DNA of 64,000 nt from assembly GCA_963841755.1 (NCBI GenBank), contig CAWJDX010000009.1, forward strand, positions 10,880 to 74,879, given 5' to 3'. The notes under the pieces are model-generated. The model ran no database searches. It was not told where the DNA came from and worked only from the letters and a program-made list of their open reading frames with translations. The stretch's first letter is position 1. Every line of letters begins with the position of its first letter. The position numbers and the translations under genes were made by a program. This DNA comes from an uncultured Candidatus Rokubacteria bacterium (GTDB lineage Bacteria; Methylomirabilota; Methylomirabilia; Rokubacteriales; CSP1-6). Shown here piece by piece: positions 4,263 through 48,964 of the stretch.

Positions 4263-5264
4263 GTGGTGAAGGAGACGCTCATGGGCGAGCGAGAGCTGAC
4301 GTACGGGGACGCGGTCAAGGAAGCCATCGCGGAGGAGATGCGGCGCGACCCGCGCGTCTTCATCATCGGGGAGGACATCGCGGAGGCGGGCCATCCCTTC
4401 AAGACCCTGGTCGGGCTGGTGCAGGAGTTCGGCACCGAGCGCGTGATCGACACGCCGATCTCCGAGCCCGGCTACGCGGGCATCGGCGTCGGCGCGGCCA
4501 TGACCGGCATGCGCCCGGTGGTGGACGTGATGTTCGGCGACTTCATCACCCTGACCATGGACCAGATGGTGAACCAGGCCGCCAAGGCGCACTACATGTC
4601 GGGCGGCAAGATCAAGGTGCCGATCGTCTTCCGCACCACGCTCGGGGCCACCCGCCGCTCGGCCGCCCAGCACTCGCAGTCGCTCCACGCCTGGGTGAGC
4701 CACATCCCCGGCCTCAAGGTGGCGCTGCCCTCCGGCCCCTACGAGGCCAAGGGGCTCATGAAGACCGCCATCCGCGACGACAGCCCGGTGGTCATCTTCG
4801 AGGACAAGATGATGTACCGGATGAAGGGCCCGGTGCCGGAGGGCGACTACACGATCCCGTTCGGCGTCGCCGAGGTGAAGCGCGCGGGCAAGGACATCAC
4901 CATCGTCGCCACCAGCAGCATGGTGGGCGTGGCGCTCGGCGCGGCCAAGATGCTGGAGGACGCGGGCATCAGCGCGGAGGTGATCGACCCGCGCACCACC
5001 TGGCCGCTCGACAAGCAGGCGCTGATCGAGTCGGCCAAGAAGACCTCGCGCGCGCTGGTGGTGGACGAGGGCTACGAGCGCTACGGCGTCACCGCCGAGA
5101 TGGCCGCGGTCATCGCGGAGGGCGCCTTCTACTACCTGGACGCGCCGGTCAAGCGCATGGGCGCCATGGACGTGCCGGTGCCGTTCTCCCCCGTGCTCGA
5201 AGACCTCACGGTCCCGTCGGAGAAGACCGTCTTCGAGGCCGCCCGCACCCTATGCCGCAAGTAA
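4263..5264 (+). CDS. 2-oxoacid/acetoin dehydrogenase E1 beta subunit
   Basis: GEDIA, DTPISE, AAQHSQS and EVIDPRT motifs. ATG alternative at 4281. Confidence 0.92.
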   Translation: MVKETLMGERELTYGDAVKEAIAEEMRRDPRVFIIGEDIAEAGHPFKTLVGLVQEFGTERVIDTPISEPGYAGIGVGAAMTGMRPVVDVMFGDFITLTMDQMVNQAAKAHYMSGGKIKVPIVFRTTLGATRRSAAQHSQSLHAWVSHIPGLKVALPSGPYEAKGLMKTAIRDDSPVVIFEDKMMYRMKGPVPEGDYTIPFGVAEVKRAGKDITIVATSSMVGVALGAAKMLEDAGISAEVIDPRTTWPLDKQALIESAKKTSRALVVDEGYERYGVTAEMAAVIAEGAFYYLDAPVKRMGAMDVPVPFSPVLEDLTVPSEKTVFEAARTLCRK

Positions 5265-25810: not shown

Positions 25811-26329
25811 ATGGCACGGATGGAGCCGCTCGGGATTCACGAGGTCGACGACCAGATCCGGCACATGTGCGAGGAGTCGGAGCGCCAGATCGGCACCTCG
25901 GCCAGCACGCGCACGTACGCCCGCAACCCGATGGTGGTCAAGGCGCTCGCCGCCTTCCGCGGCACCCTGACCCGCGAGGGGACGATCGACCCGGTCGTCC
26001 TGGAGCTGGTGCGGATCAAGATCGCGGGGCTCAACGCCTGTCGCTACTGACTCAAGGCGCGCTATGCCGGGGCCCGGCATGCGGGAGCGACCGAGCAGAA
26101 GATCGCCGCGATCAACGACGAGACGTCCACGCTGCTGACCCCGAGGGAGCGGGCCGCGGTCCGCTTCGCCGAGAAGCTCGCGGTGGATCACCAGAAGGTC
26201 GACGACGAGCTGTGGGCCGAGGTGCGCGCCCAGTTCTCGGAGGCCGAGGTGATCGAGCTGGTGGCGCACACCACGCTCTACATCGGGTTCGGCCGGTTCA
26301 ACGAGATCGTGGGGATCGACCCGGCCTAG
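25811..26329 (+). CDS. AhpD/carboxymuconolactone decarboxylase-like selenoprotein (CxxU)
   Basis: In-frame TGA at 26048-26050 in NA-C-R-Y-U. The same frame continues 92 codons with CMD-like LTPRERAAVRFAE..FSEAEVIEL..GFGRFN to TAG. SECIS-like hairpin follows. Confidence 0.85.
26060..26083 (+). promoter_or_regulatory. Putative bacterial SECIS element
   Basis: CGC, bulged U, AUGCCGG-[GGC]-CCGGCAU, GCG. The loop starts 21 nt after the UGA. It uses codons (tat, cat, gga) that are uncommon in neighbouring genes. Confidence 0.7.
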
Positions 26330-44747: not shown

Positions 44748-44848
44748 AGTGTTCTCCCTGGCCAGCCGCCCTCGCCCATCGGAATTGCCGACGCGTCCCG
44801 GTGCTTCCGCAAATAGTAGTCCGATCGGGTTGGAGGAGTGGCAGAAAT

Positions 44849-45961
44849 GTGGTTGACTTTCACCCCGTGGGGCCTCGCTCGACGTGGTGGCGGATCTTCG
44901 AGCGGCCGAGCCTCGGCGGGGTGCTCGCCGGGGTGGCCGTCTGGGTGGTGGTGGTGTCCGCCCTGCACGTCGTCGTCAATCACCGCGGCGCGCTCACTCC
45001 CGGCGCGGAGGCCCGCACCCTGGAGGTGGGCGGCCTGCCGGTCACGTGAAACCTCACGCTGCCGATCGCCAGTCTGGCGATGTCGCGGGACGCGGAGGGC
45101 CGGTCGGTGGTCGACGTGACCCTCGCCGACTCCCCGGCCGAGTACAGCAAGTACAGCGGGTGGCCCGAGCTGAAGGAGTCGTTCATGGCCGGCAAGGTCA
45201 AGGCGGCCTACCTGCTCGCGCCGATGGTGATGGATCTCGTGGAGAGCGGGGTGGACGCCAAGATCGTGTCGCTCGGTCATCGCTCGGGCGCGGTCATCAT
45301 GGTGCGGAAGGACTCGCCCGCGAAGAGCTTCCGCGACCTGCGCGGCCGGCGCATCGCGATCCCGAGCCGGTTCGCGGTCGACCACCTCTTCGTGCGCCGC
45401 ATGCTCAAGGAGAGCGGCATGACCGTCCGCGACGTGGAGCTGGTGGAGATGGCGCCGCCCGAGATGCCGGCCGCCCTCTACGCGGACCAGGTCGACGCCT
45501 ACGCGACCGGTGAGCCGTTCGGGGCGGTGGCGGAGGTGGCGGGCTACGCGCGCCCCCTCTACATGACGCGCGACAAGTGGCCGGACTACGTCTGCTGCGT
45601 GCTCACGGTGCGCCAGGAGCTGATCGACCGCGACCGGCGGCAGGTGCAGCAGATCGTCAACCACGTGCTGTCCGCCGGCGCGTGGCTCGAGACCGCGCAG
45701 GCCAACCGCGACCGGGCCGCCGACATCGCGGCCGGCCCCACCCTGTTCAACCAGCGCGCCGACATCATCAAGCACGTGCTCACCAATCCCCGCGACCGGG
45801 TGACCTACGCGGACCTGCGGCTCATCAAGTCCGAGATGGACGAGCTGATGGAGGCCGCGCTCGAGGCCGGCATCATCCGCCAGCGCATCCCCTACGAGCG
45901 GTACGTGGACGAGAGCTTCCAGCGCGCCGCGCGCCCGGTGGACATCCGTGTGGAGCGGTAG
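44849..45961 (+). CDS. NrtA/CmpA/SsuA-type ABC substrate-binding selenoprotein (in-frame TGA 45047-45049)
   Basis: ORFs 44801-45049 and 45080-45961 share a frame and are separated only by TGA plus 10 sense codons. The joined read is TM anchor, LEVGGLPVT-U-NLTLP, SGWPEL, YLLAPM, GEPF, WPDYVCCVL. Start is GTG 44849 or 44867. Confidence 0.82.
45065..45081 (+). promoter_or_regulatory. Putative bacterial SECIS element
   Basis: AUCGCCA-[GUC]-UGGCGAU perfect 7-bp stem. The loop starts 23 nt after the UGA and includes a rare AGT codon. Confidence 0.68.
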
Positions 45962-46709
45962 GCTCGCCTGGCTGCCCCTGCTGGGCCCGGTGGCCCTGCT
46001 GGTCGCGGTCTGGCACGTGGCGGTCGCGCTGAGCGGCAGCCTGATCTTCCCGACGCCCTGGCAGGTGGCGGTGGGCCTCGGGGACCTCGCCTGGCGCGGG
46101 CTCCTGCTCAAGCACGTGATCGCGTCGCTCTTCCGCGTCACGTGCGGCTACCTGCTGGCCGCCGCGCTCGCCATTCCGATCGGCATGCTGATGGGCTGGT
46201 TCGCCACCGCGCACGCCTTCCTGAACCCGCTCGTGCAGGGGCTCCGCCCGATCTCGCCGATCGCCTGGATCCCGCTCGCGATCCTCTGGTTCGGGGTGGG
46301 GGACCTCTCGCCGATCTTCCTGATCTTCCTCTCGTCGTTCTTTCCCATGGTGGTGGGGACCGCGGCGGGGGTGATGACGATCGACCGCAAGTACCTCCGG
46401 GCCGCCCGCAACTTCGAGTACCGCGGCTTCCGGCTCTTCCGCTCGGTGATCCTGCCCGCCGCGCTGCCCCAGATCGTGACCGGCATGCGCATCGGGCTCG
46501 GGGTCGCCTGGCTCGTGGTGGTGGCGGCGGAGATGATCGCGGTGAGCTCCGGCCTCGGCTACCTGATCATCGACTCGCGCAACGCGGGCAACCGCTACGA
46601 CCTCGTGGTGGCCGGCATGCTCACGATCGGGGTCGTCGGGTTCGTGCTCGACACCCTCATGCGCGGGCTCGAGCGCCTCGACGAGGTGCGCTGGCGCTAT
46701 GAGGCCTGA
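45948..46709 (+). CDS. ABC permease (NitT/TauT/SsuC type)
   Basis: SLFRV..GY, RPISPIAWIP and LPQIVTGMRIG..WLVVVAAEM. Overlaps the SBP stop. Confidence 0.92.
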   Translation: MWSGRLAWLPLLGPVALLVAVWHVAVALSGSLIFPTPWQVAVGLGDLAWRGLLLKHVIASLFRVTCGYLLAAALAIPIGMLMGWFATAHAFLNPLVQGLRPISPIAWIPLAILWFGVGDLSPIFLIFLSSFFPMVVGTAAGVMTIDRKYLRAARNFEYRGFRLFRSVILPAALPQIVTGMRIGLGVAWLVVVAAEMIAVSSGLGYLIIDSRNAGNRYDLVVAGMLTIGVVGFVLDTLMRGLERLDEVRWRYEA

Positions 46710-46715
46710 GATCCC

Positions 46716-47480
46716 GTGAGGCCCAAGATCGAGATCCGGTCGATCTCCAAGACGTTCGTGACGCGCGGGGGGCCGGTGCCGGTGCTGGACGACCTGAGCT
46801 TCGAGGTGGCCGACGGCGAGTTCGTCGCGATCATCGGCCCGTCGGGCTGCGGGAAGTCGACGCTCCTCGGCGTGCTCGCCGGCTTCGAGCGCCCGGACCG
46901 GGGCGAGGTCCGCGTCGACGGCGAGCCGGTGCGGGAGCCCGGGCGCAAGGGCATGTTCATCTTCCAGCAGCCGTCGCTCTTCCCCTGGCTCGACCTGGAG
47001 CGCAACCTCGTCTTCGGCCTGAACGGCGAGTCCGCCGAGACGCGGCGCAGCCTGGTCGCGCACTACATCGCGCTGGTCGGCCTCGAGGGGTTCGAGCGCG
47101 CCTTTCCCAACCAGCTCTCCGGCGGGATGCAGCAGCGGGCCGAGCTGGCGCGGGCCCTGATGGTGAAGCCGGAGATCCTCTACCTGGACGAGCCGTTCGG
47201 CGCGCTCGACGCGCTGACCCGGCTGCGCATGCGGGCCGAGCTGCTCCGGATCCTGTCGCGCGAGCGCCACACCGTGCTGCTGGTGACCCACGACGTGGAG
47301 GAGGCGCTGCACCTGGCCGATCGCGTGCTCGTGCTCTCGCCGCGGCCGGCCCGCATCCAGCACGTCGTCGAGGTGACGCTCCCGCGCCCCCGCGCGCTCT
47401 CGAATCCGGAGCTGATCGCGCTCAAGGCGTCGCTCCTGCGCGAGCTGGGCGTGGACGAGCAGGCGGGGGAGCCCTCGTGA
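46716..47480 (+). CDS. ABC ATPase (SsuB/NrtD type)
   Basis: [26 protein letters not shown] and VTHDVEEA. Confidence 0.93.
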
Positions 47481-48091
47481 TCGGCGCGCGCGTCCTCGCG
47501 GCCGGCGGCGCTCGCGATCGCCTGCCTGGCGGCGGGCCCGGCCGCCCACGCGGCGCCCGCCGGCGCGGCCGGGCTCCGCAGCGGCGCCTTCGATCCGCCG
47601 CGGCCGGCGCCCGAGTTCGCGCTGCCCTCGACCGGCGGCGCCGAGTTCCGGCTGAGCCGCCAGCTCGGCAAGGTCATCGTGCTGACCTTCGGCTACACGA
47701 GCTGCCCCGACATCTGCCCCACCGTGCTGGCCGAGCTGGCCCAGGTGCGGGAGCGGCTCGGCGGGGCGGCGAAGCGGGTGCAGGTGGTCTACGTGAGCGT
47801 CGACCCCGAGCGGGACACGCCGGCGCGCCTCCGCGCCTACACCGAGCAGTTCGACAAGACCTTCCTCGGGCTCACCGGAGCCGACGGAGCAGCTCGCCCC
47901 GGTGTGGAAGGCCTACGGGGTCTCGGTGGTGCGGCGCGAGCTGCCCGGCACCAAGCCGCGCGATGTACCTGATCCATCACTCCGCGTCCGTGTTCCTGAT
48001 CGACCCGGCCGGCCGCCTGCGCGTGATGGCGCCCTTCGGGACTCCGGTGGACGACGTCCTGCACGACATCCGCACCCTGCTCGAGGAGTGA
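47477..48091 (+). CDS. SCO family copper chaperone; frameshifts near 47505, 47880 and 47960
   Basis: Signal-like N-terminus, FGYTSCPDICP (CxxxC), VSVDPERDTP and IHHSASVFLIDP (Cu-binding His). GTG overlaps the ATPase stop. Confidence 0.88.
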   Translation: MIGARVLAAGGARDRLPGGGPGRPRGARRRGRAPQRRLRSAAAGARVRAALDRRRRVPAEPPARQGHRADLRLHELPRHLPHRAGRAGPGAGAARRGGEAGAGGLRERRPRAGHAGAPPRLHRAVRQDLPRAHRSRRSSSPRCGRPTGSRWCGASCPAPSRAMYLIHHSASVFLIDPAGRLRVMAPFGTPVDDVLHDIRTLLEE

Positions 48092-48095
48092 GCCG

Positions 48096-48540
48096 ATGCG
48101 CCGACTGCTCGTTCTCGCGCTGGCCGGCCTGGTCGTGGCTCCGGCCGCCGTCGCCCAGGAAGCGCGCCATCCGTCTGGAGAAGCCGTGGGTCCGCCGGGC
48201 CCCGGCCATGCCGGACGCGCGGCCGGGCGCGGAGAGCACCGCGGCGGGCTACGTCACCCTGCTGAATCGCGGGCCCGACCGCGACGCCCTGGTCGCGGCG
48301 TCGGCCGACGTCGCGGCGCGGGTCGAGCTGCACGAGACCCGCAACATGTCCGGGATGATGATGATGGAGCGGGTGGACAAGGTCGAGCTGGCCCCGGGCT
48401 CGCGCGTCGAGCTCCGGCCGGGCTCCTATCATCTGATGCTGATCGGGCTCAAGCGCGCGCTGACCCCGGGCCAGACCGTCACCCTCACCCTCGAGTTCGA
48501 GCGGGGCGGACGGATGACGACCCGCGCGGAGGTGCGGTGA
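48096..48540 (+). CDS. PCuAC-family periplasmic copper chaperone; frameshift near 48165
   Basis: Signal peptide, AAGYVTL.N, ELHET..MSGMMMM and PGSYHLMLIGL (H-M-H-M ligands). Confidence 0.88.
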
Positions 48541-48964
48541 CCCGCCGGCCCGCGGCGCTCGCGGCGGTGGCGGGCCTCGCGCTCGCTCTCGTCGCGCTCG
48601 CCTGGGCCGCGCTCGCGCCGCTGCCGGCGGGCTCGCACGCGCTGACCTTCGTGATCCCGCCGGGCACCGCGGCGCGCCTCAAGGCGGGCGAGGCGGCGAG
48701 CGTCCTGCCCTCGCCGATCCACCTCACGTCGGGGTGCGCGACGTGCTCGTGCTCACCAACGACGACGACGTCATCCACCAGGTCGGCCCCATCATCCTCG
48801 GCTCGCGCCAGACCTACCGGATCCCGTTCCGCAAGCCGGGGCGGTTCCAGTACGCGTGCTCGCTCCACGCGGCGGGCACGCTCGCGCTCGTCATCGACCC
48901 GCCGCCCGCGGCCGGCCTCGAGCGGCTGCGGTGGCGCCTCGGTCAGCTCACCGCCCGCTCCTGA
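48537..48964 (+). CDS. Membrane-anchored cupredoxin-like protein; frameshift near 48728
   Basis: TM helix, FVIPPGT, LTNDDDVIHQVG and FQYACSLH (His...Cys-x2-His). GTG overlaps the PCuAC stop. Confidence 0.7.

Follow-up and report, generated by a model that had tools for sequence, protein, structure and literature searches.

A putative selenocysteine-containing substrate-binding protein of an ABC transporter, probably copper-handling, in Candidatus Rokubacteria

A 64,000-nucleotide stretch of DNA from an uncultured Candidatus Rokubacteria bacterium (GenBank assembly GCA_963841755.1, contig CAWJDX010000009.1, positions 10,880 to 74,879 of the forward strand; hereafter, the window) was analyzed around a gene for a substrate-binding protein (SBP) of an ATP-binding cassette (ABC) transporter at positions 44849 to 45961 (all window features named below lie on its + strand). 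Comparison with related loci indicated that an in-frame TGA codon of this gene (45047 to 45049) is almost certainly a selenocysteine (Sec, U) codon and that its product is probably an exported or membrane-anchored SBP whose cleft holds a soft-metal site made of selenium and sulfur donors, probably with a His residue, the metal most likely being Cu(I). These assignments were made from sequence and predicted structure, and the original prediction on this DNA, which had proposed a thiophilic site of U and a Cys-Cys pair, is discussed where the results bear on it.

The SBP gene comprises 370 codons from GTG 44849, which is the likely start codon; the frame is open from 44801, and a GGAGGAG Shine-Dalgarno sequence (44832 to 44838) lies 10 nucleotides (nt) upstream of this GTG. 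Translation of 44801 to 45961 with TGA read as U gave one continuous protein (...TLEVGGLPVT-U-NLTLPIASLAMSR...), in which the quoted motifs GGLPVT-U-NLTL, SGWPEL, YLLAPM, VDHL, and WPDYVCCVL were all found. The TGA within GGLPVT-U-NLTL is the only one in frame in 44849 to 45961, and it is in frame with both GTG 44849 and ATG 45080, the start of the 293-amino-acid (aa) open reading frame (ORF) that gene callers report. The U and the Cys-Cys pair are residues 83 and 265-266 when counted from 44801, 67 and 249-250 from GTG 44849, and 13 and 195-196 in the mature-domain model described below, and the relatives have U or Cys at positions 60 to 65.

To place this codon in a family context, the best 80 of more than 500 loci found among GTDB species genomes were used as the homologue set, which provided 79 motif-bearing genes. 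The codon aligned with the window TGA in these 79 related genes was TGC in 62, TGT in 7, and TGA in 10. The residues GGLPVT directly before the TGA or Cys codon and NLT directly after it were invariant in 80 of 80 family members, on which ground a chance open frame was dismissed. Full-length database relatives (343 to 354 aa, ~60% identity) carry Cys at this position (GGLPVT-C-NLT), and approximately 100 of the 120 best database matches were 284- or 293-aa proteins with the same truncation as the ORF from ATG 45080. Within a sample of 201 genomes of the phylum, the gene occurred in 10 genomes, and TGA was present in all nine full-length copies (the window's own and eight more).

Immediately downstream, 18 nt after the U of the UGA, a hairpin resembling a selenocysteine insertion sequence (SECIS) was recognized (AUCGCC-AGUCU-GGCGAU, 45065 to 45081), with GU at loop positions 2 and 3. 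Its perfect 6-bp stem and GU loop were present in 11 of 11 TGA forms and in 0 of 69 Cys forms, with the family consensus (A/G)UCGCC-NGUNN-GGCGAU. Covariation in the stem was minimal, consisting of a single wobble change from A-U to G-U without compensatory pairs, and an Rfam search of the hairpin returned no match to a SECIS family. The candidate lower-stem pairs GCUC/GAGC and CUGC/GCAG stood in shifted registers and were therefore left out of the compensatory count. In the same genome, the UGA codons of selD and of an AhpD-like CxxU gene are each followed, at a distance of 13 nt, by a similar GC-rich hairpin. In the window, an AhpD/CMD-like ORF (25811 to 26329) has a TGA at 26048 that is read through at C-R-Y-U, and a 7-bp hairpin (AUGCCGG-GGC-CCGGCAU) of the type seen in the SBP and selD genes follows 13 nt past this UGA. 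The genome also encodes selB (369.6 bits; G000:C2:201605-203488), tRNA-Sec beside selB (C2:198708-198805), and selD (338.9 bits), itself TGA-containing, and selA (G000:C2:200218-201571), which adjoins tRNA-Sec and selB, is split over two frames in this assembly (model positions 1 to 234 and 233 to 453). The proposal that the UGA must be decoded, and decoded as Sec, was thus supported by the Cys/Sec pairing, the confinement of the hairpin to TGA forms, and the Sec machinery in the genome.

The N-terminal part of the protein contains a hydrophobic segment of 22 residues (LGGVLAGVAVWVVVVSALHVVV, 44912 to 44977), a putative signal anchor or export signal, which is preceded by a degenerate twin-arginine region (RSTWWRIFERP). 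A canonical RR motif of the twin-arginine translocation (Tat) type was found in 70 of 80 family members (e.g., FLRRRQVLQG and LSRRQLLQ; N termini of loci L017 to L088), often together with a lipobox Cys, and SBPs carrying such signals are probably exported in the folded state. Folded export may protect the Cys cluster against oxidation in the periplasm; alternatively, a pre-bound cofactor may be the reason for it. The ORF from ATG 45080 starts within the predicted helix alpha1 and therefore lacks the N-terminal hydrophobic segment or anchor, strand beta1, and the U position, in agreement with what had been predicted for it.

The product matched Pfam NMT1_2 (PF13379) with an E value of 1.2e-30 and 107.6 bits (gathering score, 24.7). 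When the mature domain was modeled with AlphaFold2 from the 80-sequence alignment, the model had a predicted local distance difference test score (pLDDT) of 91.1 and a predicted template modeling (TM) score of 0.89; its top Foldseek match was 3UN6 (TM 0.84/0.91; root mean square deviation, 2.3 Å), followed by SsuA, NrtA (TMq 0.81), and CmpA (TMq 0.80). The Pfam score, the two-lobe class II fold, and the cognate permease and ATPase genes all identified an NMT1_2/NitT-TauT-type SBP of the cluster F fold. Narrower assignments failed, as the protein scored 108.2 with the SsuA/TauA model TIGR01728 (cutoff, 163.5) and at most 27 with TauA models (cutoff, 304), and 43.4 bits with the SaoX model NF040735 (cutoff, 300), with no nine-gene SAO neighborhood. 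Membership in the NrtA/CmpA (F-I) oxyanion group was likewise rejected, given that Cys stands in the place of NrtA K269 and PSRF in the H196 region, with the Trp and the GEP Gly kept. A search of the bacterium's own genome for an NrtA-like paralogue yielded only one other NMT1_2 gene, which was not NrtA-like.

Profile-to-PDB hidden Markov model (HMM) alignments placed the family segment w-p-n-y-i-C-C-v-l on W-K-D-H-P-E-K-A-F of NrtA, W-P-Y-H-P-E-E-Y-L of CmpA, and W-S-G-Q-P-K-K-V-L of NrtC (K479-K480). The H-P-E-K of NrtA has chain indices 237 to 240, and with an offset of 29 the Lys at index 240 is K269; this offset was cross-checked by the GEP Gly, which falls on the published G240. NrtA K269 corresponds to NrtC K480 and CmpC K481, is the nitrate specificity residue, and is Glu in CmpA (PMC13287603), and its role, together with H196, has likewise been stated for NrtA (PMC8786288). 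The proposed match of YVCC with HPEK of NrtA and HPEE of CmpA was accordingly confirmed (QPKK in NrtC), and the second Cys of the pair (TGC TGC, 45593 to 45598, in WPDYVCCVL) therefore stands at the anion specificity position. In the AlphaFold2 model, the pair (195/196) stands at the start of the hinge strand by which the chain returns from lobe 2 to lobe 1.

By DSSP, U is located in the loop between beta1 (E4-8) and alpha1 (H16-29) of the model. The published nitrate ligands of CmpC-CRD are W319, H408, G452, and K481, none of them from the beta1-alpha1 loop (PMC13287603). Thus, the claim that U and the Cys-Cys pair both occupy ligand-defining positions of NrtA and CmpA found support for the pair, whose second Cys falls in the K269 column, and none for U. 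The correspondence of U with the motif G(F/Y)I(A/P)LT(D/E) of NrtA and CmpA was unconfirmed, the profile alignments having stopped short of the N terminus of both proteins; a phmmer search with an N-terminal 28-mer gave no match, and a search with an N-terminal sub-profile matched 3un6 and TauA only, neither NrtA nor CmpA. Two residues of the nitrate site have counterparts here: its Trp aligns with the invariant Trp of GWPE (W51), which lies in SGWPEL (45155 to 45172) and is HMM-aligned to the nitrate-binding W317 of NrtC, and its Gly aligns with that of TGEPFG (G167). The first hinge strand bears GHRSG (45275 to 45289), whose His, a candidate fourth ligand, does not vary in this family or in that of 3UN6, and IPSRFAVDH (45359 to 45385; includes VDHL), with its invariant PSRF, aligns with the region of NrtA H196 and the 'AAHTF' of CmpA.

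Comparative evidence suggested that U and the Cys-Cys pair belong to one site. The residues C/U13, C195, and C196 were invariant in 80 of 80 sequences, as were H90 (of GHRSG; H144 from GTG 44849), PSRF, and TGEP. Of two accessory Cys residues, Cys21 is Ser in the clade of the window and Cys165 is absent from every Sec form, the latter of which may simply follow phylogeny. In the 3UN6 family (Staphylococcus aureus and Bacillales; 27 to 32% identity), KIGYLPIT-H aligned on VGGLPVT-C/U in a full-length MAFFT alignment, so that the U column holds His, Cys, or Sec, each of which can ligate a metal. This family keeps LGH and the second Cys, as (C/D)-C, and has IPH in place of IPS. A HMMER placement of the 3un6 LPITH on LPVAC (17 to 21) was considered and rejected, as the full-length MAFFT alignment and the DSSP topology favored LPVT-U.

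A sister lineage of the same class extends the series, as its SBP reads VGYLPVT-U-NLT and WPTYL-U-U-VLT, with the Cys-Cys pair encoded by TGA TGA. These U...UU genes, with three TGA codons, were found at L099:536-1747 (- strand; = G069:C351), L104:1366-2589, L105, L106, and L107, and the identical sequence was recovered in four assemblies, namely, three sequencing runs and one NCBI metagenome-assembled genome (MAG). A GGGAGG-AGUU-CCUCCU hairpin lies 13 nt past the second UGA of the tandem and is imperfect in a CC-bearing sister genome. Moreover, a 164-aa fragment from another sample (P0244), 85% identical to the U...UU SBP, likewise ends at WPTYL, that is, at the first C position. A metagenome scan for further U...UU relatives found none, and a protein database search did yield relatives. 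Adjacent Sec codons sharing one SECIS would be unusual. The C termini of L099 and L100, SBPs of the U...UU lineage, carry a Met-rich tail (GRMGGMKMDEAQMEKMYDEQVEMYEKQKKMMMKKQMKGMGR); this type of motif is typical of periplasmic Cu(I)-binding proteins. Since the positions of U, C195, and C196 can all be Sec, joint action of the three is suggested, as their shared substitution is otherwise hard to explain. In a maximum-likelihood tree with a Firmicutes outgroup, the Sec forms were basal and paraphyletic, and at least three Sec/Cys changes were needed. Taken together, the invariant C/U13-C195-C196, the His in the U column of the 3UN6 family, the U...UU relative, and the conserved copper-chaperone neighbors described below strongly suggest a thiophilic site, as had been proposed.

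The genes downstream of the SBP gene link it with copper proteins. The permease gene (BPD_transp_1; 45948 to 46709) overlaps the SBP stop codon by 14 nt and is followed by the ATPase gene (46716 to 47480), the best NCBIfam matches of the two being SaoP and SaoA, respectively, both below the cutoff. Next come a SCO1/SenC-like gene with CPDICP (47480 to 48091), a PCu(A)C copper chaperone gene with the motif H...M...HxM (48093 to 48540), whose intact L093 ortholog matched Pfam PCuAC at 6e-36, and a gene for a membrane-anchored cupredoxin-fold protein (48537 to 48964), with a C-x2-H-x4-M loop in orthologs. In 79 of 80 loci, the SBP gene has a SCO1/SenC-like gene as its neighbor, with the CxxxC kept in 79 of 79, and 72 of 80 loci contain a small cupredoxin-fold gene (140 aa) that gave no Pfam match. 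Its product has an N-terminal transmembrane helix and an invariant C-x2-H loop, mostly C-x2-H-x4-M; an AlphaFold2 model of it (pLDDT 93.9) matched the CuA domain of cytochrome ba3 best in Foldseek, along with purple cupredoxin, amicyanin, plastocyanin, and CupA, and an HMM match to amicyanin was also obtained. PCu(A)C genes occur in 8 of 10 Sec loci.

The order of these genes differs between the two forms, being SBP, SCO1, small gene, permease, and ATPase in Cys-form loci and SBP, permease, ATPase, SCO1, PCuAC, and small gene in the clade of the window. The Cys-form cassette (SBP, SCO1, cupredoxin, permease, and ATPase) is present in the culturable genera Massilia, Roseateles, and Steroidobacter, including Roseateles saccharophilus DSM 654 and Steroidobacter gossypii, and no gene flanking the five-gene cassette was conserved among the loci. 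Of the 70 Cys-form loci, 8 have a gene resembling those of flavin adenine dinucleotide-dependent monooxygenases and Trp halogenases next to the cassette, as does the U...UU lineage (L096:4494-5867, L104:85-1302, and L108 at about 4283-5257). Tandem paralogous SBP pairs, both Cys forms, flank SCO1/PCuAC at L096 (5864-6895 and 8001-9050) and L019 (5182-6204 and 7339-8385). In addition, the loci L010, L011, and L012 (95%, 83%, and 84% identical to the window, respectively) are labeled Verrucomicrobiia or Gemmatimonadales, and L009 and L013 are labeled Methylomirabilota; these labels suggest mis-binning or recent transfer.

Several of the downstream genes are interrupted in this assembly. Relative to L009, a 96%-identical locus, 1-nt indels were located at 47884, 47959, 48165, 48727, and 49363. 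The SCO1-like gene is thereby spread over three frames by two insertions (47884 and 47959), the PCuAC gene is frameshifted at 48165 and the cupredoxin gene at ~48727, and a Lyase_1 gene is broken as well; the 2.6-kb SBP-permease-ATPase block contains no such indel. The indel cluster and the split selA indicate local assembly error or recent decay. A Pfam search of the long window ORFs between 48096 and 53956 gave no matches because the true genes there are frameshifted or lie in other frames.

Considering these findings, we propose that the gene encodes one exported or membrane-anchored SBP of a type I ABC importer with Sec at codon 67. The lobe 1 selenol, the hinge-strand residues Cys249 and Cys250, and probably the His of GHRSG would form a soft ligand site in the inter-lobe cleft, taking the place of the oxyanion site of the NrtA and SsuA relatives, and the ligand would most likely be Cu(I), either free or complexed. 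The periplasmic SCO1-like thiol-disulfide/copper protein, PCu(A)C, and the cupredoxin-fold protein may keep the Se/S cluster reduced and hand over copper, after which the loaded SBP would dock on the permease for ATP-driven import. Selenolates have a low pKa, are soft, and are oxidized reversibly, properties that could improve capture and exchange in an oxidizing compartment. The data show the fold, the signals for Sec coding, the linkage of the genes, the Cys-Cys pair at the equivalent of K269, and three residues that never vary; we infer that U and the two Cys residues lie within bonding distance, which metal is bound, and in which direction it is handed over. More broadly, the locus may belong to a selenium-using branch of a widespread and so far unrecognized family of Cu(I) ABC importers, marked by a Cys3, Sec-Cys2, or Sec3 cluster and by in-operon SCO1, PCu(A)C, and cupredoxin-fold chaperones, a proposal that we regard as tentative.

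Some observations weigh against copper import by such a site. A Cys3His-type site could as well bind Zn, Cd, Hg, or Ag, and SCO1-family proteins also include plain thiol-disulfide oxidoreductases. The SCO1, PCuAC, and cupredoxin genes are all frameshifted in this assembly, and the U...UU lineage lacks the embedded SCO1/cupredoxin pair. The Tat signals of most members imply folded export, which leaves room for a bound cofactor instead of a transported ligand, and the proximity of U to the Cys-Cys pair is argued from topology and comparison.

If the TGA were a true stop, the locus would be a pseudogene or would give two products, a small peptide in the membrane and a 293-aa protein in the cytoplasm, a reading in line with the annotation of the 293-aa ORF by gene callers and with the frameshifts in the neighboring genes and selA. 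However, TGA is kept at this codon in at least four lineages, the residues on both sides of it are invariant, and the codon aligns with Cys elsewhere. Furthermore, the downstream hairpin is specific to TGA forms, a truncated protein would have neither beta1 nor an export signal, and the SBP, permease, and ATPase genes are free of indels relative to L009, so that a true stop is highly improbable. A metal other than copper has more in its favor, whether the site takes a soft metal such as Zn, Ni, Cd, or Hg or, as has been suggested for the SAO system, an organometallic or metallophore complex, with the neighboring copper proteins serving otherwise. The structure 3UN6 was crystallized with zinc, Firmicutes relatives adjoin genes of the SCO4226-like (Ni-binding) family and are in some cases named 'metal ABC transporter', and the best NCBIfam match of each of the three ABC subunits is a Sao component. 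Against this, the SCO1-like and cupredoxin genes separate the SBP gene from the permease gene in most loci and in several phyla, an embedding that argues for a shared substrate and is otherwise hard to explain; in addition, the Sao model scores are far below the cutoff and there is no SAO neighborhood. We therefore consider another metal unlikely.

Instead of a metal site, the Sec/Cys cluster could also be a site of redox chemistry or covalent capture. It would then bind persulfide, polysulfide, thiosulfate, selenotrisulfide, or a thiol metabolite via a selenenyl-sulfide or disulfide bond, with the SCO1-like protein as the reductase and the cupredoxin as an electron carrier. Such a role would be consistent with the sulfur oxyanion ligands of the nearest characterized relatives, SsuA and TauA, with the thioredoxin/AhpC-TSA fold to which SCO1 belongs, with the typical occurrence of Sec in redox sites, and with Tat export, by which a reactive cluster would be protected. 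However, three features, namely, PCu(A)C, the C-x2-H-x4-M loop of the cupredoxin, and the Met-rich tail, are signatures of copper rather than of a redox relay, and the residue that replaces U in the 3UN6 family is His, a metal ligand and not a redox residue. These features make redox or covalent capture quite improbable, and a Se/S site for a soft metal, most likely Cu(I), is retained as the preferred explanation.

To our knowledge, little is understood of how bacteria take copper into the cytoplasm, and an importer of this kind, if real, would provide a new route for it. A literature search for a SCO1/cupredoxin-linked ABC copper importer found no description. The table of prokaryotic selenoproteins in a 2026 review includes SaoB, SaoX, and BtuF and no NMT1_2 or 'T-U-N' family, and a groundwater-MAG survey cited there may hold unlisted candidates. 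Thus, the Sec-containing SBP and its copper-linked transporter family appear to be previously undescribed and are probably copper-handling. Sec in transporter binding proteins was first reported in 2022 (SaoB and SaoX), and the position in the cleft and the subfamily are both different here; the present proteins would represent a fourth, mechanistically distinct family of selenoprotein SBPs, one lineage of which would decode tandem UGA-UGA. The Sec form is frequent among soil Methylomirabilota-type genomes, in which public annotation gives truncated products of 284 or 293 aa. Since the Cys-form cassette occurs in culturable Massilia, Roseateles, and Steroidobacter, the candidate copper ABC importer is directly testable, and the natural series from His to Cys to Sec, and from CC to UU, offers an unusually clean system for learning what selenium adds to a metal-binding site.

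Four groups of known systems resemble the one described here in different respects. The NrtA, CmpA, and NrtC-CRD proteins share the fold (TMq 0.80 to 0.81), the nitrate-site Trp, and the GEP Gly, and the Cys-Cys pair falls on their E-K269, E-E, and K-K480 dipeptides, respectively. Unlike them, the Sec-containing SBP has Cys at K269 and PSRF in the H196 region, and it scores weakly against them (E values of 1e-9 to 1e-10); a C-terminal helical extension of NrtA size is also missing. A functional analogy is provided by the assembly of CuA, in which Sco1 and PCu(A)C metallate a Cys-rich site, as in the Thermus ba3 paradigm. Both this system and CupA of Streptococcus pneumoniae, a cupredoxin-fold Cu(I) chaperone, parallel the present loci, where the same chaperone families stand beside a Cys/Sec-cluster protein. 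Unlike the CuA system, the presumed acceptor here is an SBP of an ABC transporter and not an oxidase subunit.

The best sequence match, 3UN6, is an S. aureus import SBP from structural genomics that matched the family profile at 1e-39. The two have LP(V/I)T-x, LGH, IP-x-R, (T/A)-x-EPFG, and the CC motif in common, and 3UN6 differs in its low identity (27 to 32%), in His for Cys/Sec and IPH for IPS, and in the lack of SCO1/cupredoxin neighbors. Its zinc ligands are predicted to be His46 and the conserved Cys. Genes of its Firmicutes family lie near SCO4226-like genes (PF14026; L097:4393-4905 and L098:9844-10377) and, in S. aureus, also near a cation efflux gene, a context that is metal-related but not copper-related. 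SaoX and SaoB of the SAO system were the first Sec-containing SBPs described (Haft and Gwadz, bioRxiv 10.1101/2022.07.06.499078). As in the present family, they are SBPs of ABC importers in whose cleft Sec/Cys and a CC motif come together, and the site has been read as one for a metal or organometal. SaoX likewise has an SsuA-like fold, and its rare Sec (TU at 191-192) appears, by HMM coordinate arithmetic, at the position equivalent to CC and K269; the permease and ATPase of the window, moreover, match SaoP and SaoA best. The scores nevertheless set the two apart (43 bits versus 300 for SaoX, 191 versus 295 for SaoP, and 222 versus 360 for SaoA), as does the absence here of the nine-gene neighborhood (no SaoL, C, D, E, or T), with SCO1, PCuAC, and a cupredoxin as partners instead. 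Finally, Sec is located here in the beta1-alpha1 loop, and the hosts are soil Methylomirabilota-type bacteria and, for the Cys forms, mostly aerobic Proteobacteria rather than the strict anaerobes of the SAO system.

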